From: Amoebidium appalachense
Taxonomy: Eukaryota > Protista > Ichthyosporea
Length of the DNA: 64,000 nucleotides
Reading direction: 5' to 3'
Assembly (NCBI GenBank): GCA_963693365.1
Contig: CAVNZM010000002.1
Location: 16,835,615-16,899,614 of the forward strand
Positions within the stretch are counted from its first letter, which is position 1, and each line of letters starts with the position of its first letter. The position numbers and the translations under genes were made by a program. Of this stretch, positions 910 through 64,000 are shown in pieces. The notes below the pieces were generated by a model that did no database searches, was not told the origin of the DNA, and saw only the letters and a program-made list of their open reading frames with translations.

Positions 910-12214
<11,305 letters not shown>

Positions 12215-13969: not shown

Positions 13970-25445
<11,476 letters not shown>

Positions 25446-25763
25446 TTTGTGGTCTAATCTGCCCTTGGCGGGCACACAGGCACGTAACGAAACCCTTTCA
25501 GACCAAGAAGCCCTAATGCGCTGATAACAAGAGGGCTATGATAACTCCGGGCCCTTGTAAGGCCGCTCCTAGGTATCCAGTGTGAATAGCTAGTAGGGGG
25601 ATAAATGACGTGATCTTGTCTCAAGGAAAGAGAGGAAAGCCTGGGAGAAAGGGAGAGAGAAAATAAACTCTTTAAAAAAAAAAAAAAAAAAAAAAACATG
25701 ATCATGAAGTCCGCGGATCCGGCTGCACCCCAAATAAATTAGTCTATATATGCGCTACCTTTC

Positions 25764-26375: not shown

Positions 26376-27890
26376 ATCCACTCTCTCACACTCACTTCGA
26401 GGCAGTTCTTCTTATGCATCCCAATAAATACCTTTTGTCGTAAAGAAAGGCTCTTTCTTTCATCGAAATGCTTCTTCTTTCATCCTGTTGTCAAAGCCCT
26501 CAAGGAGAAGTTGCCACGGATTTTTGTGTACCCGAGTGAATGGCCTCCTTGACTACAACGAGGCCATTCACTCGGGCACGGAAAAAGTCCGTTAGCTGGG
26601 TCTTTTTGCCAACATATAACCGTGTGTTCCCTGGCTTCTCAATTTCTTGCCTTCTCAGCTTCGTTCTTTTTCTGGTATAACCCCGGCGGCTCCTTAATCG
26701 GCTCGAGTAAATCGCCACTTGTTGTCAAGTCAATAACTCAGTCCCTGACCCTCCTTTGTTTCGATCATAGCTATGCGGCTTTCCAGTAAAGCCCAAGCTG
26801 GAAAAACAAAGGCAGAGAGTGTCCATCAAAACGGTGTGCGCATGTATGCGCTGGTTCTGAGATACCATGCATACTCGAGCCATTCTACGAAGGCTAAATC
26901 AGATAACACACTCATGACTGCTCGCACAAGTTTAGGAAACGTTTCAAACCTACTATTCGATGCATGGGAATGGCCAAACATATGGTTAGTGCCATGCACA
27001 TCAAACGTCGCATACGCGCAAGCACACTGCAGTGTGGCACATATCATGCTAGCTATTGTCATTCAATCACACATGTACATGGCCGCGGACACAATAACGT
27101 GATGAACGCAAGCACGCGCATCATCGCGGCATCCTATCGAATTCGACGACGCACACGCCCACACCCACGAACAGTTATGCCAGCAGGGAGCCGTGCCCAA
27201 ACTTTTTGTGCACGAAACGGACCGTGACGTCGCCATCATCACCCGGCAAACCCGTCGCTACTGATGCCAGCAACGATTCGCTAAGACGGCACCACTCATG
27301 ACATCATTGTGATATCATCAATCTGAGCTCAAAGCTAATATTCATACTTTGGCACGTAAATGCCACTATATTCCAGCTACTTATAACACTTCATTATTAT
27401 TCTTGTAGTATATTTTGTAATTGATTGTCAGCTATGGTATTTAGCTCCGAGCTGTTGTGAACCTCAAATGTCAGGACAAGTTTTAGATGATCTATCAAGT
27501 TAGATCCGATTGGCTTAAAGCCATGCTACTGATTTTACTGCTTTTTGGTCTGGAATGCGTACATTTATCGTTCTTCGCGCATGATGACAACCAAGGTGCG
27601 CTATCCTCGGTTTGGGTCGAACACTTCGGGGGGTTGAAAACATGAACTTTCATCAACGACTTTAAAGAATACTGAGAAGATGGAAAAGTAAAGTAAAAGA
27701 AGCAGAAGAATGTTTATAGCTATTTATTAGAGTTTTGAATGAAGGGAATAGTCTTTTCATCATTAATAGAGTTAGTTTTATGACACCGGTGGTAGGGAAG
27801 CAGGTGCTGTAGCGTTAGGGCTGAAGTCGAAAAGAGGCTTACATACTACTTCTAAGCTGTTGCCCAGCTCTCGAAACGGATTGGTTAATA

Positions 27891-28021
27891 GGAAAGAATC
27901 TATTTTGCATCAGCGTCTGTCTTGGCGTTTGCGTTATAGCGTTGGTAAAGACCAGAAAATCGGAAAGAATCTACGTTGCATCAGCGTCTGTCTTGGCGTT
28001 TGCGTTATAGCGTTGGTAAAG
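27891..28021 (+). repeat. ~60-bp direct duplication upstream of the RBR ligase gene
   Basis: GGAAAGAATCTA..TTGCATCAGCGTCTGTCTTGGCGTTTGCGTTATAGCGTTGGTAAAG at 27891-27950 and 27962-28021. Confidence 0.9.
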
Positions 28022-42912: not shown

Positions 42913-45077
42913 ATGTCTGAGACAAAGACAGTTACGTTTGCTGAGGTTGCCCAGCACAAGGATAAGAAGGACATTTGGTTCGTGATCAACGGCAAGGCTT
43001 ACGATGTAACCCCCTTCCTTGACGAGCACCCGGGTGGTGAGGAGGTGAGTGTGGAAGAGCCTCGAGCCACACGTGTTATTCCCTGTGAGGGCATCTTTTA
43101 TACCTAAGTCCTAAGTCCAACGTTTTTTTATTTTATTCATTGCCTCGGACTAGTATTTTTATACATGCACAAGGTTTCTAATATTGTTGGAAGTTTGCTG
43201 CCAAAGTTTGGAGAACTACAGAGGCATGAAATTCCCCCTGTGCTGTCAACCAACCTCTTTCCCTGACTTGTCATCTTGTGAGTAGTACCTTTGCCTGGTT
43301 CTACTGTCAAACCATTCCAGATGACTTCTCAAAAACACACACTTACGGGAGCCGACTCGACTGTTGTTTTATTTTGCTTTCTCGGTTATTCAGAGTAGCT
43401 GTTGTATGCCACGTTCAGGGTCGTTCAAGAGATTAAGTCATTATTCTTTTGCCAGGTGCTGCTCGAGCACGCCGGTGCCGATGCCACACAGGCATTCGAT
43501 GATGTCGGGCACTCGACTGATGCCATCAGCGATTTGAAGAAGTACTATGTGGTATGTTTAGCTCCCCCCCACCCACCCACCCACCCACCCACCCACCACC
43601 ATACACACACACACACACATATACACACACACGACCTCAACGCTCTCCCTGATGTTGGGTCCCTTTCCTGTCACTTGCATGTACTAGCCAAGATGTCTCG
43701 TTTGTGTGATCGGTCTGCTTGCTTTTCTTGGTGTGCACTGCCCTTCGTTGTGTTTTGGTGGTGGATCGGGTGTTGCCCCCCCCCCACCCTCCCCCCACCC
43801 CAAGCTGCACCCACCCATGTTTCCTTGCTCCTTTTCTGCATGCTGTCTGCTGTTGCGGTCTTAGAGTTGCTGTGTGTGTGTTTGTATGCTTTGCTGTGTA
43901 CTTTGTTTTCTGCTTGCCTGCATCTCGACCCGTTTGCTCCCCACACCCGTAGCTCCGAACAGGGTGTCATTTTTGGTGTTCTACGAGTCACTCGTGGGCA
44001 AATGGTGTTTTTCACTTCTTTCACCCCCTTGTGAAGTATGCACATACACCCTCGCTTTCTCTTGTGGCCTCTTTTCGATGCACCACAATGCTTGTGCCTC
44101 GTCTAGCATGTATCGGTCACCCTGCATACATTCCACACTGTGTGTTGTATGTCATAACACCCCCCCCACACACACACACACCTTTCCCCCCCCCGGCGCC
44201 CGTGGCCAACACACACACACACACACACACACACGACCACCAACACGCGGAACAAGGTCATCTGCTATGTTTGCGTTTTGGTTTTGATGTGAGTTCATTT
44301 TGGCAATGCTGCACCCATGGGCATGGTGCTGTTTCGTGGCATGCCTTTCGCGCTTGTTTATGTACAGTGTACCTCCTCCCCCTCCCCTTCCCCCCCTCTC
44401 TCACTACCGTTGCCTGTTTGCCTGCTGGCATAAGTGACCCTGCTCGTCTCTGATCAAGGCGGGTGACCCACCCATGTGCAAGTGAAATAGTTTCTGAGTT
44501 GGGGTTCGTTGACGAGATGACTGGGTTGGAACTCGGGTACTGTGGATGACGTGGGCCTGCCTTGAGGATGGGCTTTGCTTTTTATGCATGCTCTTGATGT
44601 GTAGTTTGCATTCTGAATTGTGTTTGCCGTTGTGAATGTGTACTTCGTACTCCATGGCGCGCACCCCCCTTTCCCCCCCCCCCCCCCCCCCCCCCACCCA
44701 ACACACACACCACCACCCCCACGACCCAAAAATGAAGAAGCAGAAGAAGAAAAGAAAGGGGGGTGGGGATGGGGAACACCCTCACTCATTTCATCCCACC
44801 GTTGTATGTTGCTATGCGTCCCGGTGCACTGTGTTCTTTTTCCTTCGTATTTGCAGTGCACCACCTTGAGCTCCAGCACTCTGCTGTGTTCAAAATACAT
44901 CCCCCCCGGGTTTCGTTAACGAGGTGAATGGGTCGAAACTCTCGTAATGTGGATGACGTGCCCCCCCCCCCCCCCCCCCCCCCTAAGGATGGGCTTTGCT
45001 TATTATGCATACTCTTTATGTACGGTTTGCATTCTGCATCCGTTGTTCACGTGTACTTCTTACTCTATGATGCATTC

Positions 45078-45132
<55 letters not shown>

Positions 45133-45335
45133 ACACACACGCGCGCTCCCCTTTAAACACACGCACATACACACGTCACCAATCTTGCCGGTCCCACACT
45201 ACCCTCATCACACACTAAGTGCATGTCGTTCGGGTCCTTGTACCTATTTCCCCTTCTTTCCCCTGGCTCTCCTCTTGTTTGGGTGCACCAGTCTCCCTAT
45301 ACTTCTGCCCATCCTTCCAGTTGCTTCCTTCCCTC

Positions 45336-45375
<40 letters not shown>

Positions 45376-45607
45376 TTCAGGTGCCTTGCACATACACATA
45401 GACACACACAACCACTACACATTGGACACTGTGGGATTTACCATTGTTTCCTCACAGGCCGATGTTGAGGGTGCCACCGTGACGGCACCAGGCAAGAAGG
45501 CAGCCAAGGCAACACAGCAGGGGGGCAGCGACTTCATCACATACTTGATCCCCATGCAGTCATGCTGCTGCTATCTACTACAAGCTGTACATGGCTTAAA
45601 GGTGTAA
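42913..45607 (+). CDS. CYB5: Cytochrome b5 (tail-anchored); last exon appears frameshifted in this sequence
   Basis: Exons 42913-43044 (..YDVTPFLDEHPGGEE), 43456-43551 (VLLEHAGADATQAFDDVGHS) and 45458 onward. Both haem-ligand His motifs (HPGG, GHS) are present. Confidence 0.93.
44427..44660 (+). mobile_element. Near full-length but degenerate family 1 repeat in cytochrome b5 intron 2
   Basis: CATAAGTGACCCTGCTCGTCTCTGATCAAGGCGGGT..GTGAAATAGTTTCTGAGTTGGG..ACTCGGGTACTGTGGATGACGTGGG..TTGAGGATGGGC; the GAAA and CUGA core positions are mutated. Confidence 0.88.
44908..45079 (+). mobile_element. Family 1 repeat copy starting at GGGTTTCG and ending CATTCAA plus poly-C
   Basis: Matches 63644-63810 with substitutions and an expanded internal C-run. 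Confidence 0.88.
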
Positions 45608-45949
45608 TTATTGTCTAATGCCATGGTACACATTAGGCTCCCTTATTAGCATGTAGGTCTTATGCGCTCTGTGTTTGTACGAGCATGGGTTGTTGTGCAG
45701 GGGTGATTTTTCGAAACAAACCGAGTGCCTTTTGTGTTTGCAGTAAGGCCATGCCTGACGCTGCTATTTCGTCCAGTTTTGTATTTCCATCTTAATCTTA
45801 CTGCGTACTTGCCTTATATAGTTGTGGGTGGTATTATGCCCGGGCTTGATGTCCTGCCGACTGTAGCTAAAACAATGACCTCGATCATCATTACTATTGT
45901 CTCCATGCGAGTGTCGGCGACCCCCCCCACCCACCCACCCACCCACCCC

Positions 45950-46144
45950 ACCCATGTTCAAGTGAAACGGTATCTGAGTTGGGTTTCGTTGACGAGATGA
46001 ATGGGTCGAAACTCGGGTACTGTGGGTGACGTGGCCTTCCCCTGAGGATGGGCTCATTATAATGCATACTCTTTATGTGTGGTTGCACTCTGCATCGTGT
46101 TGTTCGTTGTTTTTGTGAGCTTCGTAATTCATGGCGTATTCAAA
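45950..46144 (+). mobile_element. Family 1 repeat with intact putative hammerhead core, about 350 nt downstream of the cytochrome b5 stop
   Basis: GTT 45978-45980, GGG 45981-45983, AATGGGTC-GAAA 46000-46011, CCC-CTGAGGA 46039-46048, GGCTCATT 46051-46058. Confidence 0.88.
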
Positions 46145-46843
46145 CCCCCCTCCCCCTCTTCCTTCCACAACCACCATCACAATCACCAAACCCTGTCTTT
46201 TCCTCCCTTCCCATAGCCCTCTTCCCCTTTGCCCTTCCCCTCCCTTTTGTGTTGTTCGTTATGAATGTGTACTCAGCGGACTCAATAACACGCTCTATAC
46301 CCCCTCCCCCCCCCTTTTCTCTCTCTCCCTCTGAATTGCTCTCTCTCTCTCTCTTCTTTTTCTCTCTCTATGTAACTGTAAAGTTCCCTCACAGCTTTGG
46401 AGAGCCCTTCCCGAATTTCAAAGCAAGTGCACACACGTCCATTTCTTTATATAATAGCGGCTTGCACCACCACTACACTACATGTTACGTTGGCATCAGC
46501 AAGAACACGTGCACAGCGTCCCACCCAGACAACTTAGCATTGTCATTTACACATATGCACGCACACATGTGCACATACACACACACAGGCGCGCCTGCGC
46601 ACACACGTGAACACACACACAAACATATTTGATTTGCCCCAATCAAGAGTCAAAAGGTGCAGCGCTGGTCAATGCGAAGGTAAGAAGTTGTAGGTGGTGG
46701 TAGCAGTGGTGCGCATCGTGGTGGTGGTGGTGATGGTGGTGATGGTGGGCGGGGGGGGGGGGGAGGCCCTAGGGGGGTATGTCGTAGGGCCGGGACCCAC
46801 CACCCCACCGGAAACGTGGGTCCCGCCGTTCCAATGGGGGGTT

Positions 46844-50270: not shown

Positions 50271-53200
50271 CTATAATTTTGTAGTGATGTGTTTCTCAAG
50301 CCAATCAATACATCTAATAAACAGGTCGTAGTTACGCGTGTTTAGTATAAAATCAAGGATGTTGTAATTTACAGGTAGGCTATCTTTCTGGGTGTCTGTT
50401 GTGAATGTGACGTGTGTGTGTTGCGGTATTATGTGGTCTATCAAACTACATTTGGCGATACATGACCGGTTAAACTGGTGTGTGTGTGTGTTGTTTGGGC
50501 ATGCAAATGATGCCACCTTATACTTATTAGATCTCCACTGTATAGCACGTGTACAGTAAAAGCGTGGTAATTGATCAATAATACCATCAGCTAGAGAAAG
50601 ACCAGTTCTACAGGAAGGTAATATGTATTTAGGTGTTATACACTTGCGAGTGCCATATTTGGCAATATGGTTGAGGCGGTCAGTATATATAAAACGAGAC
50701 ATAAGGCTTAGTTTTTCAAGGTGTATGCTTTCATCGGGTCTAGTGTCGTGTGGTATCTTTTTCCATTTGTTATATTGCGTGATTATCTTGTGATTGTGTA
50801 CATGTTTAATAAGTAAGTGGCAGTCCAAAGTCACACACACACTATTGCGGGGTTTATTTGTATTTGTGCCCAGGGGAGAAGGGGAGAGAGAGGGGAGGAA
50901 AGAGGGGAGAGGTGAGGAGGGGACAGGTCGGATAGAGAAGAGAGGGTGGGAGGGCAAATACTTCTTTAAGCGGCTTATGTGCTTATTGAATTTCAGCGCG
51001 AGATAGGATACTCTAGCAGCTATTGGGACCAGACCATATATCGAGAGCGTTACAGGCCCAGGTTTACAACAGTTGTTAGATAGAAAGGAGGCAACTTCTG
51101 CTTCAAGGAAATTTGCCAAGGGTTTAAGCGCTCTAGTTCTCTCTTTCTTGATCCAAGCGGCGAGAAGGGGTAAACCATATTCACATGCCGGGAAGACAAA
51201 AGTGCGAATAAATGTAAGTCTAATAGAAGGATGGAGGGGTGTGTCTTTAAAAATATTAGCCGAGAAGAAAGCTAACCGCTTACGAGCCAACTCTACCCTC
51301 TTTTCGACCATATGGGGAAACATAACACCAACAGAATCAACCGGAACACCAAGATATTTGTATTCTGGAACTATAGGTACAGGTTTAGATGATAATGTAA
51401 ATGTGTGTAAATTGTTAGCTATATCAGGTACAAGAACACCACATTTGTCTATGTTAAGGATCATAAGGTTTGCCTTGCACCACTCTGACACTACATCGAA
51501 CAATCTTTGCAGGCGTCTAGGGGTACGGGCAAGGAGGGACAGATCATCAGCATAGAGAAGTGCAGGCGGAAAGTTATTAATAGGGTCATCGTTTTCGGCG
51601 TAAATCTTGACAGCCAAATCATCTATAAATAGGTTAAACAAAAAGGGGCTAAGCAATGAACCCTGCAAGAGACCTCTAGTACGAGCAAAACCATATGAAA
51701 GATGCCCATTAACCACAGCTCTACCATAGGTTTGAGACAAGAGTGCTTCTAACAGAACACCAATGCAGTGTGGTACACCCCGTGCAGCAAGCTTTTCCCA
51801 TAGGAGACCAGGGGAGACAGAATCGTAAGCAGTTTTCCAATCAATAAAGCCAACATATTGTGCACCAACTTGCATAGAATCGTGCAGTGCCATTATTTGA
51901 ACATAACATGAATTGTTTTTACGAAAAGCGGATTGGCATGGGTGTATGTGAAGAATAGATTGAAACCTAGGGTGATGTGCAAATAACCTAAGTAAGCAAG
52001 CTTCAAAGAATCTACGAACAACCTGGGTTAGTGTAATGGGGCGAAAGGATGATATGGGGCCCTCAGAGTCCTTCTTAACTATGGGGATCACTAAGGTATC
52101 TAACCAAGATGACGGGACATGTCCACATTTAACACACCAAGAAAAGAGAGAGCTTAACATGATAGTAAGATCAGGTTTAATAGCACGATCACTTTCCTTT
52201 TGTGGGTAGGAGGGAACAAGGATTTTAAGAAACCCAGCAGGGAGTCCATCAGGTCCACAAGACTTACTAGAGCTATAACTAGATATCACAGACCATATGG
52301 CATCGGGACTGAAAAAGGGGAGGATCGATTCTATGGGGATAGATGGGTCTACAGGCCACACAATAGGTTTCTGAGCGGGGGTCCTATCTTTAAACAGTTC
52401 CGAGAAATACTTATCAGAGTCTATGAGGGGGTCTCCAGTGGTATCACCAATAATACGAGCAGGGGGGCCAAATCGATTCATACTAGCAAGCCGGCGCAAG
52501 CTTTCCTTTTGAGACAGGGGTTCACCTAGTCTAGCGGGAGTGGTGTTTGGTAACAAGAGAGCATCGGGATATTCCTTCCTACCACCGCCAGCATAATCAC
52601 CGAGATCTATCAAATCATCAACAATAAAGTTAGTGCATGTATCTAGTACGAGATGTGAATCTGGCCTGGCTTGTGCAGATTCTAATAGGCGCATATATAT
52701 AGGGTGTTTCGTAGCATAGCATACACATACATCAACTCTACCCCACTGTGACTTAAGCTGGGATAGACGGAGGCGAAAGGTGGGAGGGGGAGGGGGGAGC
52801 AGATCAAGGGAGATCTTAGGTAGGAAAAGGATAGGAGAGTGGTCAGATGACCTAGAGAGGTTAGGAGGGAGAGAGAGTTTTGACATGGTTGATGGCCAAA
52901 AGGCCACTCCCCAGTCGGTGTTGTGGGCATGGGATATTTGAGGGAACCGCAAAGTGTGACTTTGGACATACCTTGCTAAAGGGATAGCACGCTCCGGGGG
53001 CTTAGATGGGTACCCGACACTCACTTGCAGTGTGTCTGTGTGGTGGAGTCGCGTGTTAAAATCACCTAAAATAACAGTGGACATTGGTAACTGTGACAAC
53101 TCGTGAGTCAATTCGACAACCGACATAGATGGTGGGTAATATACAAAAGTAAAAACATTAGAAAGAAACTCTATAGAAACCGAGAATTCCGTTTTTGCTA

Positions 53201-53465
53201 CCGGTTTGCACTTCACTCTCACGTGTGGTGCGGCAAGTACAATAATGCCTCGGTTTTTCGCGTAACCGGGGTGTGTGGATGTGTCGACCAATGTAGAGTT
53301 GAATTTGTGGTGGTTTTTAAACTGTGTTTCGCAAATCACTGTAAACGTGTGGTTGTTTGTCTGTTGTTGTATGTAGCTGATTTTATCGTCGAGTGTCCCG
53401 GGGGGGAGGCCCTTTTGGGGGCCCAGTGTCCGAGCATTCCAGAAGAAGAAGGATAAATTAGGCAT
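50271..53465 (-). CDS. LINE ORF2: AP endonuclease, reverse transcriptase and C-terminal Cys/His motif (1064 aa)
   Basis: APE motifs WNAR, CET, YYPP, GDFN, SDH. RT motifs GPDG, PIVKK, FRPITL, QSAFR, FIDWKTAYDSV, GLLQGSLLSPFLFNLFIDDL, YADD, KYLG. No introns. Confidence 0.96.
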   Translation of the reverse strand: MPNLSFFFWNARTLGPQKGLPPGTLDDKISYIQQQTNNHTFTVICETQFKNHHKFNSTLVDTSTHPGYAKNRGIIVLAAPHVRVKCKPVAKTEFSVSIEFLSNVFTFVYYPPSMSVVELTHELSQLPMSTVILGDFNTRLHHTDTLQVSVGYPSKPPERAIPLARYVQSHTLRFPQISHAHNTDWGVAFWPSTMSKLSLPPNLSRSSDHSPILFLPKISLDLLPPPPPTFRLRLSQLKSQWGRVDVCVCYATKHPIYMRLLESAQARPDSHLVLDTCTNFIVDDLIDLGDYAGGGRKEYPDALLLPNTTPARLGEPLSQKESLRRLASMNRFGPPARIIGDTTGDPLIDSDKYFSELFKDRTPAQKPIVWPVDPSIPIESILPFFSPDAIWSVISSYSSSKSCGPDGLPAGFLKILVPSYPQKESDRAIKPDLTIMLSSLFSWCVKCGHVPSSWLDTLVIPIVKKDSEGPISSFRPITLTQVVRRFFEACLLRLFAHHPRFQSILHIHPCQSAFRKNNSCYVQIMALHDSMQVGAQYVGFIDWKTAYDSVSPGLLWEKLAARGVPHCIGVLLEALLSQTYGRAVVNGHLSYGFARTRGLLQGSLLSPFLFNLFIDDLAVKIYAENDDPINNFPPALLYADDLSLLARTPRRLQRLFDVVSEWCKANLMILNIDKCGVLVPDIANNLHTFTLSSKPVPIVPEYKYLGVPVDSVGVMFPHMVEKRVELARKRLAFFSANIFKDTPLHPSIRLTFIRTFVFPACEYGLPLLAAWIKKERTRALKPLANFLEAEVASFLSNNCCKPGPVTLSIYGLVPIAARVSYLALKFNKHISRLKKYLPSHPLFSIRPVPSSPLPSFLPSLSPSPLGTNTNKPRNSVCVTLDCHLLIKHVHNHKIITQYNKWKKIPHDTRPDESIHLEKLSLMSRFIYTDRLNHIAKYGTRKCITPKYILPSCRTGLSLADGIIDQLPRFYCTRAIQWRSNKYKVASFACPNNTHTHQFNRSCIAKCSLIDHIIPQHTHVTFTTDTQKDSLPVNYNILDFILNTRNYDLFIRCIDWLEKHITTKL

Positions 53466-54642
53466 CGGTTTGGTCCGACACCTGTGGGGTTGGTTCCCAC
53501 TTGTCGCTTACGGGGTCGTATGCACGACCTTCCGCCAGCGCGAACAGTTCGCAGAAGAGCTCGATTTCCATCTCGCATCGGCGTTTGCGCTCGAGCAGTT
53601 TCTCACCAGAAAACATTGGTTCCTTCGTGTCCGTGTCTATCACGCTCGTAGCATCGTTTTCCAACTTTGCGAGGAACTCTTTTGCCTTGCTGATGCGTAC
53701 ACGACAACGTGTGGCGCACGCATTCTTAGCAGACACTTTACGTTCTTTGTCTGCTTTCTGAATGTTTTCCGGCGCGCATGGGTCGTAGCTTGGGAGGTGG
53801 GTGAAGAAGCTTCCACACCCCTTTGTCGCGTCACGGATGAACGCACGGTTATAGTCGCCCCGTACTGCTACTTCCAGCACATCGTATCCAATGAAGGACA
53901 GACAAAGGATGCGAGAGCACCGGAAGCCGAGAGCCTTGAAGATGGACCACATGGCCCTGTGTGGGCGTCTGCCGTGCTTGACTTTGAAATACACCCTCTC
54001 GTATTTGGGTGGGATGTTGATGTTACCGTTTGCTTGGGTGTTCCCCTTAGCCGGCGGTTTGGAAGGGGAGTTGCGGCGGTACTCGTTGCCTGCAAGAATG
54101 CTGGCATATGTTTCCTTGGCAATTTGGCGGAGCTCGGGTGTTTTACGAGAGTTCGCATATTCTAGGAACTCTGCCGGGAGCTGTGCTTCCGGTCCTGTGT
54201 TGTTTTGTGTTGGGGTGGAAATGTCTCCGTCGCGAGATGTTTGCTCATGAGTTTTGGGGTTTTGCGATCCACTAATGTTTAGCTGGGCTGTGAGTGAATC
54301 AATGGTGAGCTTGAGTTGGGTATTTTCTGTTTGGAGTTTTTCTATCATGTTCTTGAGTGGTAACAGCTCATTTAGCTGTTTCTTAACGAGGGCAAGTTCT
54401 GCCAGTACTGTATCAACCGAAAGTTTCGGCATGGTTGTTATTGTGTTTCTACGGAGTGGTGTGGTGTTATTCTGAATGGGTAGTGTATTGTAAATAGGTG
54501 TTGCGCTTAGTCTAAGGCGATGTTTTTCTGGTTGTGCATCTGTGGTAGGTGTATCTGCTGGACGTTTTAATGGTCGCACATGTGTGATGGGTGTAGATGG
54601 AACTTTGAAAGAGGTTCTGAAACGATTATAGGCATGTGCCAT
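53458..54642 (-). CDS. LINE ORF1 (394 aa): N-terminal coiled coil plus probable RNA-binding alpha/beta domain
   Basis: Intronless ORF directly upstream of ORF2 and overlapping it by 8 nt. Heptad-rich segment LAELALVKKQLNELLPLKNMIEKLQTENTQLKLTIDSL; the true start codon is uncertain. Confidence 0.85.
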   Translation of the reverse strand: MAHAYNRFRTSFKVPSTPITHVRPLKRPADTPTTDAQPEKHRLRLSATPIYNTLPIQNNTTPLRRNTITTMPKLSVDTVLAELALVKKQLNELLPLKNMIEKLQTENTQLKLTIDSLTAQLNISGSQNPKTHEQTSRDGDISTPTQNNTGPEAQLPAEFLEYANSRKTPELRQIAKETYASILAGNEYRRNSPSKPPAKGNTQANGNINIPPKYERVYFKVKHGRRPHRAMWSIFKALGFRCSRILCLSFIGYDVLEVAVRGDYNRAFIRDATKGCGSFFTHLPSYDPCAPENIQKADKERKVSAKNACATRCRVRISKAKEFLAKLENDATSVIDTDTKEPMFSGEKLLERKRRCEMEIELFCELFALAEGRAYDPVSDKWEPTPQVSDQTDA

Positions 54643-54690
54643 GACATGGATGGGGGTGTTCCCCGGCCCTTAGGGCCACGGATGGCCTGG

Positions 54691-54751
54691 TTTAGGGGTG
54701 GATGCGCGAAGGATACTATTTATTAGTATCCTTCGCGCATCCACCCCTAAA
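54691..54751. repeat. Perfect inverted repeat with 28-bp arms and a 5-nt loop
   Basis: TTTAGGGGTGGATGCGCGAAGGATACTA-TTTAT-TAGTATCCTTCGCGCATCCACCCCTAAA. Confidence 0.97.
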
Positions 54752-63010: not shown

Positions 63011-63569
63011 TGTGCGGGGTTGCACATACCGGTGTCTACTTTTCTTCTTACTGTTTTTCTCTCCACACACTTCATCTGTCCACTTCTGCATACCCCCTTT
63101 CATAGCTATAGACACACTTCACACATTGCGTTACGCGCACGCATGCACACACCGCTCTGTTGGCGACAGCTCCCTTGGAACCCATGCGGCATGTTACCCG
63201 CCGGCGTAACATAACTCGGACTATCGGTTTGGCTTTTTTCAAGCCCAAAGCAATGGGTGATACCATATTTCCGGCTGACATCCGGGGGCATAGCTTTCCG
63301 TTCGAAGACGATAAAGTTCCGCCCTAGTAAGCGTGTTACTACCCTGCGGCGTGGGTCAAATCTCATATTTTCCCCTCTGATTACGAATTCTGTGGCCTTC
63401 GGGACTTAATTCTTTTCAGCTGGTGTAGTATGTTAGCCAGGGAAGTATCGACTTAGGTATCGACGGGGGAGCTTCCTAGAAGCCCCGTCTCCTGAGTTCC
63501 TATCTATATTTTTCTTGCTTCTGCTTACTGCTGCAACTTTAACCCCCGGCCTTTCCCACTGCCCTTGCC

Positions 63570-63812
63570 TGCATAAGCAACCCTGCTCGTCTCTGATCAA
63601 GACGGGTGACCTACTCATGTTCAAGTGAAACAGTATCTGAGTTGGGTTTCGTTAACGAGGGGAATAGGTCGAAACTCGGGTACTGTGGATGACGTGGGCC
63701 CCCCCTGAGGATGGGCTCTGCTTATTATGCATACTCTTTATGTATGGCTTGCATTCTGCATCGTGTTATCCGTTTGTTCTTGTGTACTTCGTACTTTTTG
63801 ACGCATTCAAAA
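63570..63812 (+). ncRNA. Most complete family 1 copy: kissing-loop hairpin, k-turn, putative non-circularly permuted hammerhead ribozyme and 3' tail
   Basis: Hairpin 63585-63607; 13-bp stem 63630-63642/63674-63686; GUU 63641-63643; GAAA 63671-63674; CUGAGGA 63705-63711; ends CATTCAAAA plus poly-C. Confidence 0.75.
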
Positions 63813-64000
63813 CCCCCCCCCCCTCCCCTCCCCCCATCTCAACCCTACTCTCAGTACGATACCTGTGTCCACACCCTGCTGTCAACCGCACTCATGTTTC
63901 TCCCCAACCCTTGGTTAGGAAACTTAGAGTACTGTGGTAACTCATTCATTCTTGCTTGTAAACCCACACGTTTGCACAACGTGCGTCATGCCTGTGCATT

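Follow-up and report, generated by a model that had tools for sequence, protein, structure and literature searches.

We analysed a window of 64,000 nucleotides from the ichthyosporean Amoebidium appalachense (the whole stretch of DNA under study; all coordinates below are window positions) and found that two families of a high-copy repeat element share a kink-turn (k-turn) motif in the extension of stem III of a predicted hammerhead ribozyme. The explanation that best accommodates the evidence as a whole, to which we assign a probability of roughly 45%, is that the k-turn serves as a hinge in a split hammerhead of S-G-C strand order, which probably cuts itself and belongs to a Penelope-like repeat. 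Our confidences in this explanation and in its competitors overlap, and their sum differs from 1. If the RNA does cleave, it would be a natural hammerhead whose structural hinge is a k-turn.

The k-turn motif in families 1 and 2

The family 1 copy on the forward strand is predicted to form a hairpin at 63614-63698, with stem III on the NC side and a C helix, 8-9 pairs long in the two families, across the motif. According to the pair table, the C helix 5′ strand lies at 63614-63623 and comprises an outer part of six pairs, two of them G·U (63614-19/63693-98), and an inner part of three Watson-Crick pairs (63621-23/63690-92), with U 63620 bulged between them. The 3-nt bulge AGU (L1-L3, 63624-26) is followed by G1b, A2b and A3b, bulge and purines together spanning 63624-63629. 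These form the non-canonical pairs G63627·A63689, A63628·G63688 and A63629·G63687 with A1n, G2n and G3n, which make up 63687-63698 together with the 3′ strand of the C helix. Beyond the G·A block, 13 unbroken pairs (two of them G·U) lead to A15.1-U16.1 of the hammerhead core. The family 2 copy, on the reverse strand and with a complete core (22209-22366), has its k-turn at 22314-09 and 22248-46 and its C helix at 22323-15/22245-38. Here the outer helix consists of five Watson-Crick pairs (22323-19/22238-42), U 22318 is bulged, and the inner helix (22317-15/22243-45) ends in a U·G pair; the bulge AUU is followed by G·A, A·G and A·G. Stem III beyond this block again runs for 13 steps, interrupted by a single bulged base and a single mismatch, and comparison with the contigs of the sequencing runs showed the mismatch to be private to the window copy. 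The initial annotation had placed k-turns in both families, and its coordinates are correct for family 1, while the family 2 motif begins at 22323 and not at 22322.

Both families, as well as an older family 1 copy at 44428-44660 on the forward strand, conform to the k-turn consensus, as had been claimed. The 3-nt bulge has a canonical helix on its 5′ side (three inner plus five to six outer pairs), the tandem pairs G1b·A1n and A2b·G2n stand immediately 3′ of it, and the NC helix extends past 3b·3n through the 13 steps of stem III. The tandem G·A pairs are present in three of the four window copies that retain both strands (at 63627, 22311 and 44484) and are broken in the copy at 45947. Judged by its sequence, the motif is very probably a real k-turn. 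The C helix, 3-nt bulge, tandem G·A/A·G and NC helix are those of Kt-7 and box C/D k-turns in the accessible parts of the literature (PMC8191799, PMC5689011, PMC4382518, PMC5061560). Its description as Kt-7-type stands in part: 3b·3n is A·G in families 1 and 2, as in Haloarcula marismortui Kt-7, and apparently U·U, as in box C/D, in a third subfamily described below (PMC8191799, in part). Unlike Kt-7, which has C:G at both positions, -1b:-1n is A:U or U·G and 4b:4n is A:U (G·U in the third subfamily), and the context is a mobile-element hammerhead.

A motif scan of the 64 kb gave two matches, at the family 1 and family 2 loci. Shuffled windows gave a mean of 0.83 matches (range 0-3), and two were reached in one of 12 block shuffles; the k-turn motif by itself is not rare, and real support comes from its conservation. 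Another pattern count, 3 against 0.05, was left unused because its pattern was derived from these same copies. Between the two families the GAA/GGA bases are identical at 6/6 positions against 12/34 for the flanking helix positions (Fisher p 0.005), in a comparison of two sequences only and an alignment anchored on the motif. Five of the eight aligned C-helix pairs are altered on both sides, and the earlier claim of conservation with covariation is upheld. The core bases, G10.1-C11.1 and the 13-step spacing are likewise all kept. Individual copies decay: A1n has become G in the 45947 copy, and the 44428 copy keeps its k-turn with a core broken at the C3, A13 and C11.1 positions. Were the motif a chance resemblance, a k-turn-like internal loop held in common through the shared ancestry of families 1 and 2, the match rate in shuffled windows and the loss of A1n in one copy would be unsurprising. 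We nevertheless consider this very improbable in view of the excess conservation of GAA/GGA, the compensated C helix and the third subfamily, which alters only the freely variable 3b·3n pair.

The stretch is present in 20 of the 24 listed sequencing runs, with 6676 contigs over family 1 in run X5 and 4576 in run X1, and 1543 over family 2 in X5. Variant lists drawn at 3% (family 1) and 1% (family 2) contain no entry for the six G·A bases, which carries little weight with listed positions of only 16/341 and 27/241, respectively. In the family 2 majority sequence the stem III pair is restored, L1 is G and not A, and the loop holds a 4-pair hairpin; because the majority contigs differ from it in this way, the window copy has changes of its own. 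Loose contig ends appear to point to a third subfamily with U·U at 3b·3n (5′ strand UCA-GUU-GAU, 3′ strand UU-GA-UGA), whose halves lie on separate pieces joined by complementarity and by similar depth in run X15 (185 and 167.5). In it both G·A pairs are intact, L1 is a purine, L3 is U and 4b·4n is G·U, and its core is again 13 steps away. In its outer C helix a U·G pair is replaced by A-U, a double change (63694 G>T, at 16-22% of depth in X5 and X1). The three subfamilies, whose 3b·3n pair is A·G or U·U, provide a natural test of k-turn folding rules.

A predicted hammerhead core and the position of stem II

Families 1 and 2 contain the hammerhead elements CUGANGA, GAAA, NUH, A15.1-U16.1, G10.1-C11.1 and stems I-III, stem I having three pairs only. 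The core strands run in the order cleavage site, GAAA, CUGANGA (S-G-C). In family 1, block S (63630-63646) holds the stem III 5′ strand of 13 pairs, U16.1, U17 (63643) and the stem I strand GGG, and by the hammerhead consensus the predicted cut lies between 63643 and 63644. Block G (63665-63686) holds the stem II 3′ strand, GAAA (63671-74) and the stem III 3′ strand. The stem I strand CCC with CUGAGGA (63702-63711) forms the first half of what we read as a split block C. Its second half, the stem II 5′ strand from G10.1, would be found at 63608-63613, immediately upstream of the C helix. In family 2 the corresponding elements are stem II at 22329-25/22270-66 and CUGAUGA at 22230-24, with the predicted cut between 22295 and 22294. 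No Rfam model matched the window at its gathering score, and near the element similarity was at chance level only (Hammerhead_1, 14.2 bits, E 6.5), the Rfam type I hammerhead model having a different strand order. We think it probable that the RNA cleaves itself.

CUGANGA is trailed by a covarying closing helix of seven pairs in family 1 and eight in family 2 (22366-59/22216-09). The 5′ half of the family 1 closing domain (63573-63607) contains the outer helix strand 63573-79, a C run at 63581-83 and a side hairpin at 63588-63604, its inner pairing being ambiguous. The 3′ half (63712-63725) contains the outer helix strand 63719-25, which pairs at 7/7 positions, and 63714-19 could also serve as a weaker alternative stem II strand. 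Two segments, 63578-63592 and 63711-63720, are nearly invariant between the families and allow two to three mutually exclusive pairings, with no covariation to choose among them.

The location of the stem II 5′ strand determines how the core is read. The upstream strand forms six Watson-Crick pairs in family 1. Its partners vary together: 63612 T>C and 63666 A>G have equal shares (4.2 and 4.1% in X5, 4.2 and 4.4% in X1), the copies at 44428 and 45947 each carry both of them, and two double changes separate family 1 from family 2. The downstream register, of four to six pairs in families 1-2, shows one-sided changes only. Duplex energies are −8.8 kcal/mol upstream against −3.9 downstream in family 1 and −8.0 against −8.7 in family 2, where the downstream duplex is as stable. 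It is therefore quite unlikely, in our estimate, that the RNA is a plain type-SGC ribozyme whose active stem II uses the strand just past CUGANGA (with a 2-nt insertion after A9), the kink serving the stem I side only and the upstream strand acting as an inhibitory competitor. Such a ring would close without strain at 35-50 degrees in the axis model described below, insertions of 1-2 nt beside CUGANGA are known (PMC10085705, in its accessible part), and the downstream strand is invariant, forming 4, 6 and 8 pairs in family 1, family 2 and the 45947 copy, respectively. Its conservation can also be explained by pairing with the 5′ closing domain, and the parsable Naiad versions in the accessible part of the supplement to PMC8557442 have no downstream strand. 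In the truncated 45947 copy, in which G10.1 of the upstream strand is absent, the downstream register that grows to eight pairs lies at 46005-46060 on the forward strand.

We hold it likely, on the pattern of paired changes, that the stem II 5′ strand is the one upstream of the C helix. With the strand upstream of the kink, the core would be split after A9. The covariation would place the 5′ strand of the C helix after the stem II strand and its 3′ strand before CCC-CUGANGA. On the upstream-strand reading, the C helix stands where type-SGC ribozymes have the helix connecting the free strands of stems I and II. The split core would then be closed by a separate helix and hairpin.

Two runs guessed to be RNA contain contigs of the element; neither the level of expression nor the ends of the RNA can be read from contigs. 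At C3 of the family 2 core (22230), U makes up 42% of contig depth in run X20 (4 contigs; guessed RNA) against 0.9% in X5 (guessed DNA). Survival of transcripts with a dead core would be expected, but contig depth measures this poorly and the strains differ.

Geometry of the kink

The arrangement was examined with an axis model, rough and optimistic and not atomic, which takes 2.8 Å per layer, near-coaxial stems II and III, a 50-degree kink, helix radii subtracted and a reach of 7 Å per step. For an unkinked rod it gives gaps of 61-76 Å against reaches of 7-42 Å; the gaps exceed the reaches, and a bend is therefore geometrically required. With a 50-degree kink the gap from CCC-CUGANGA to stem I is 22-25 Å and the reach 28-42 Å. 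The CUGANGA side closes at 35-50 degrees, and family 1 fails at 65 degrees. On the upstream stem II side, at 50 degrees and a core bend of 0-20, the gap is 35-41 Å against a reach of 7-14 Å, and this side fails in 18 of 18 settings (25-48 Å against 7-14 Å) unless 2-5 pairs melt. The initial annotation had proposed that the kink brings the downstream strand to stems I and II. The model supports this for stem I, which CCC-CUGANGA reaches at 50 degrees, but not for the stem II side, which stays out of reach. Within the limits of the model, the k-turn is likely a hinge that turns distal stem III back toward stems I and II.

With all pairs formed, the ring could not close within one molecule. The solution that we favour is that the weak outer 5-6 pairs beyond the bulged U open and free a tether, and that the fully paired rod would be an off state. 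The outer C helix is worth 6.7 and 4.6 kcal/mol; its opening releases 7 nt in either family and lets the ring close in 12 of 12 settings (39-49 Å against 56 Å). Nearest-neighbour folding of the whole element, by a model without k-turn or pseudoknot terms, disfavours the C helix, with a pair probability of 0.03-0.08; z-scores are −1.15 and −0.53 for the whole element, the arm alone giving −3.43, −0.76, −1.85 and −3.20.

A different fourth step, with everything else unchanged, is that all helices stay paired and two copies, in tandem or in trans, swap stem I/II strands to give a closed four-sided dimer with two k-turn corners, so that cutting needs two copies. With all pairs formed the stem II side is 18-41 Å beyond reach in 18/18 settings, yet the outer C helix covaries in three subfamilies. 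A ring with two k-turn corners would also close (reasoned, not computed), and neighbouring copies do occur, at 22086/22360 and 44428-45947. Dimer-dependent hammerheads have been described for other Penelope-like elements (PMC4209133, in the part available). Naiad arm lengths, in the accessible records, vary widely, and two of seven (with a 1-nt bulge and with a 5-nt bulge containing G·A) fail to close at a plausible angle. Against this, most window copies are single and truncated, each corner would be held by only 8-9 intermolecular pairs, and opening the outer helix closes the ring too. We lean slightly toward opening of the outer helix over two-copy assembly, which as an account of the whole we rate as rather unlikely. 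A stronger version is more doubtful still: an obligate two-copy machine, whose split core would assemble only between copies, so that tandem transcripts yield unit-length RNA and single intronic copies stay quiet, with Snu13 clamping the kink through the loop U and the design spanning a unicellular animal relative and animal Naiads.

The misfit of arm lengths to a simple hinge would also suit a k-turn that is a protein-binding handle of an RNP (for stability, nuclear targeting or RT recruitment), the hammerhead fold being independent or inactive. A core-intact family 2 copy lying in sense orientation between TRAPPC8 exons points the same way, suggesting low or tolerated activity. We find this improbable, since the core bases, G10.1-C11.1 and the 13-step distance are kept although only 12/34 helix positions are shared, and the core strands would be 61-76 Å apart without a bend. 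The hinge remains our preferred role for the k-turn.

Protein and the folding of the kink

It had been suggested that the k-turn could make cleavage protein-dependent. In the accessible parts of the k-turn papers (PMC8191799, PMC5689011, PMC4382518, PMC5061560), A·G is the best ion-folding pair at 3b·3n and U·U is intermediate, G at -1n aids folding, and G·U at 4b·4n improved the folding of Kt-7; A·G at 3b·3n with A:U at -1b:-1n folds well in Mg2+ (PMC8191799 among the sources). Family 1 has exactly A:U at -1b:-1n and A·G at 3b·3n, and family 2 has G at -1n. The published rules class these pairs as folding in Mg2+, and obligate protein dependence is thus not predicted; protein-dependent cleavage is not the default expectation. 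The same rules predict that family 1 needs only Mg2+ to form its kink. Snu13/15.5K may attach to the kink and make it more stable, and probably no protein is obligatory for kink folding.

The base at L3 is U in 3/3 subfamilies and in both Naiad records of reversed polarity. In k-turns the U at L3 sits in a pocket of 15.5K. The conserved U hints at Snu13/15.5K binding. This is the more relevant as L3 makes no RNA contact in k-turns, according to the accessible part of PMC5061560, and it lends some weight to a protein-gated ribozyme, in which the kink needs Snu13/15.5K or another L7Ae-family protein and cleavage is protein-dependent. The third subfamily has the box C/D-type U·U, opening of the outer helix would leave a C helix of three pairs, and a helper protein has been raised for slow SGC ribozymes (Eckert et al., PMC10085705, in part). 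Such gating is nonetheless unlikely in our view. The A·G and A:U pairs fold well in ions, the G at -1n of family 2 and the G·U at 4b·4n of the third subfamily favour folding, and the G·A motif is absent at the bend in five of the seven Naiad groups of the accessible records. An L7Ae gel shift is expected for almost any k-turn (PMC8191799, in part) and would be uninformative on dependence. RNA switches could make direct use of a hammerhead that L7Ae can address.

The element as a Penelope-like repeat

Self-BLAST delimited the family 1 copy, which consists of the ribozyme domain and a 3′ tail up to a C run, to 63571-63815 on the forward strand, with its true 5′ end further upstream. Nine family 1 copies were checked; they have a common 3′ end and differing 5′ ends, and seven are truncated and start in C- or CA-rich runs. 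Among the truncated copies, that at 45947-46146 (+) has an intact core with A1n changed to G, that at 44908-45080 (+) begins exactly at the first base past the predicted cut, that at 21912-22086 (−) follows the family 2 ribozyme, 130 nt further downstream on this strand, and that at 18040-18168 (−) begins at G3n. Thus one of the seven starts at the predicted cut, and no pile-up was seen there among the loose contig ends listed. Numerous contigs cover 63500-63570, so that full-length elements extend further 5′. The segment 63031-63580 has no open frame spanning its length and no second copy in the window.

A shared 3′ end, variable 5′ truncation and insertion into (C)n/(CA)n are the marks of non-autonomous elements of Chlamys/Naiad type. 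Chlamys elements are reported to insert into (C)n and (CA)n and to include non-autonomous copies (Craig et al. 2021, PMC8557442, in its accessible part), and the element resembles them in its 5′-truncated copies in such runs. It differs from Naiad and Chlamys in having no coding region. No autonomous partner with GIY-YIG and RT was found: the sole RT among the 30 of 101 window ORFs scanned belongs to a LINE without the motif, and this LINE (50271-54669) was rejected as the partner for that reason. ARAGORN found no tRNAs in the window, and there was no sign of a tRNA-derived head. A cut after 63643 would help to process the element RNA for retrotransposition, which an autonomous partner of Chlamys/Naiad type would carry out.

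Pattern scans for relatives returned 1 (on one contig), 14 and 0 matches in viral collections, 69 in metagenomes and 35 in prokaryote genomes. Out of 120 loci with 123 motif pairs, two passed a loose filter on stem III and stem I, and both were judged by eye to be chance. The pattern scan with stem filter therefore gave no relatives outside the host in the viral, metagenome and prokaryote collections.

Comparison with Naiad ribozymes and other known systems

Naiads were reported to lack a canonical hammerhead, eight being marked "half core" (Craig et al. 2021, PMC8557442, in the accessible part). By eye we found the same split order in at least 10 Naiad consensus records from 7 groups of the accessible supplement, a minimum and no frequency, covering ctgatga places 1-6 and 15-62 of 62, ctgagga 25 of 25, ctgaaga 18 of 43 and ctgacga 18 of 23, with the first GAAA places also taken and unparsable passages omitted. 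The bend differs among these groups. In one (two records, among them Naiad_Ovul) it is a standard k-turn with U·U and reversed polarity, in another (one record) a 5-nt bulge able to form tandem G·A pairs, and the other five show two three-way junctions and bulges of 7, 3 and 1 nt. Since the bends vary in these records, the k-turn is one of several exchangeable bends. The idea that the kink itself explains the permuted topology is accordingly not sustained, the related Naiad ribozymes having the same order with other bends. In the present element stem III is on the NC side of the k-turn, 13 steps from the core, whereas in Naiad_Ovul stem III is a 5-pair C helix; the closing domain here is also more elaborate than the four-way junction of the Naiad records. 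Our reading supplies a candidate ribozyme for Naiad/Chlamys-type elements, for which canonical ones had been reported missing, in what is likely a non-animal host. Records near Naiad_Hcon and Naiad-2/-3_Nbra in the accessible supplement (PMC8557442), also read by eye, are C-S-G hammerheads with an intact block C; this C-S-G type was represented by two sequences in Eckert et al. (PMC10085705, in part).

The closest published relatives are the type-SGC hammerheads (HRIMA-1 and variants; Eckert et al. 2023, PMC10085705, in its accessible part), which share the S-G-C order, the full core and the helix joining stems I and II. Here, unlike in those, the joining helix is tied to stem III on both strands through the k-turn, and block C most likely breaks after A9, an arrangement that Eckert et al. 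excluded by assumption. Their sequences come from metatranscriptome contigs, whereas the host here is a genomic repeat. A direct link of the joining helix to distal stem III was called geometrically puzzling in that paper. The present element would answer how the two are linked, and would break the assumption that CUGANGA and the stem II strand are adjacent. The terms "kink" and "k-turn" do not occur in the text and supplement of Eckert et al. (PMC10085705), nor does the word "hammerhead" in the 2016 k-turn review (PMC5061560).

Like the minimal hammerheads of Penelope-like elements and non-LTR retrozymes (PMC4209133 and bioRxiv 10.64898/2026.07.22.740005, both in part), the element has a hammerhead at its end and a proposed role in cutting tandem RNA. 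Those are of type I, with canonical order and a short helix III, unlike the long stem III and non-circularly permuted order found here. The exchange of k-turns and pk-turns in RNase P and the lysine riboswitch offers a parallel, with the k-turn among exchangeable bends that serve one fold; in the accessible part of PMC5061560 these exchanges are proven by structure and assay, whereas here they are read from sequence alone. Within open-licence PMC and bioRxiv (most subscription journals lying outside this scope), we found no paper on a natural hammerhead with a k-turn, "Type-SGC" was used by Eckert et al. only, and nothing notable emerged on ichthyosporean Penelope-like elements. The k-turn and the SGC hammerhead are both known by themselves; a split-core ribozyme that combines them appears to be undescribed in print.

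Surroundings of the element

The window contains many (C)n, (CA)n and (CT)n runs. A TRAPPC8 gene occupies about 15400-25500 on the reverse strand and includes an exon with PF12739, whose best match, at 51% identity, is a EukProt protein labelled "Ihof", which we take to be the ichthyosporean Ichthyophonus hoferi. Four copies of the element within the TRAPPC8 span (22360, 22086, 18168 and 17196) all lie on the sense strand, the core-intact family 2 copy among them. This sense-strand bias may come from the strand of the C runs.

The LINE on the reverse strand (50271-54751) has an ORF1 of 403 aa and an ORF2 of 1078 aa (RVT_1, E 6e-28) and ends in a (CA)n run; its RT is 98% identical to one in a EukProt record (P0005). 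Just upstream of its ORF1 lies a near-perfect 61-nt palindrome (54691-54751). An imperfect inverted repeat of 77 nt at 26516-26592, with 82% identity to its own reverse complement, occurs as a single copy. Local tandem repeats were observed at 8287-8752, 15704-15848 and 27887-28021, with periods near 50, 71 and 71 nt, respectively.
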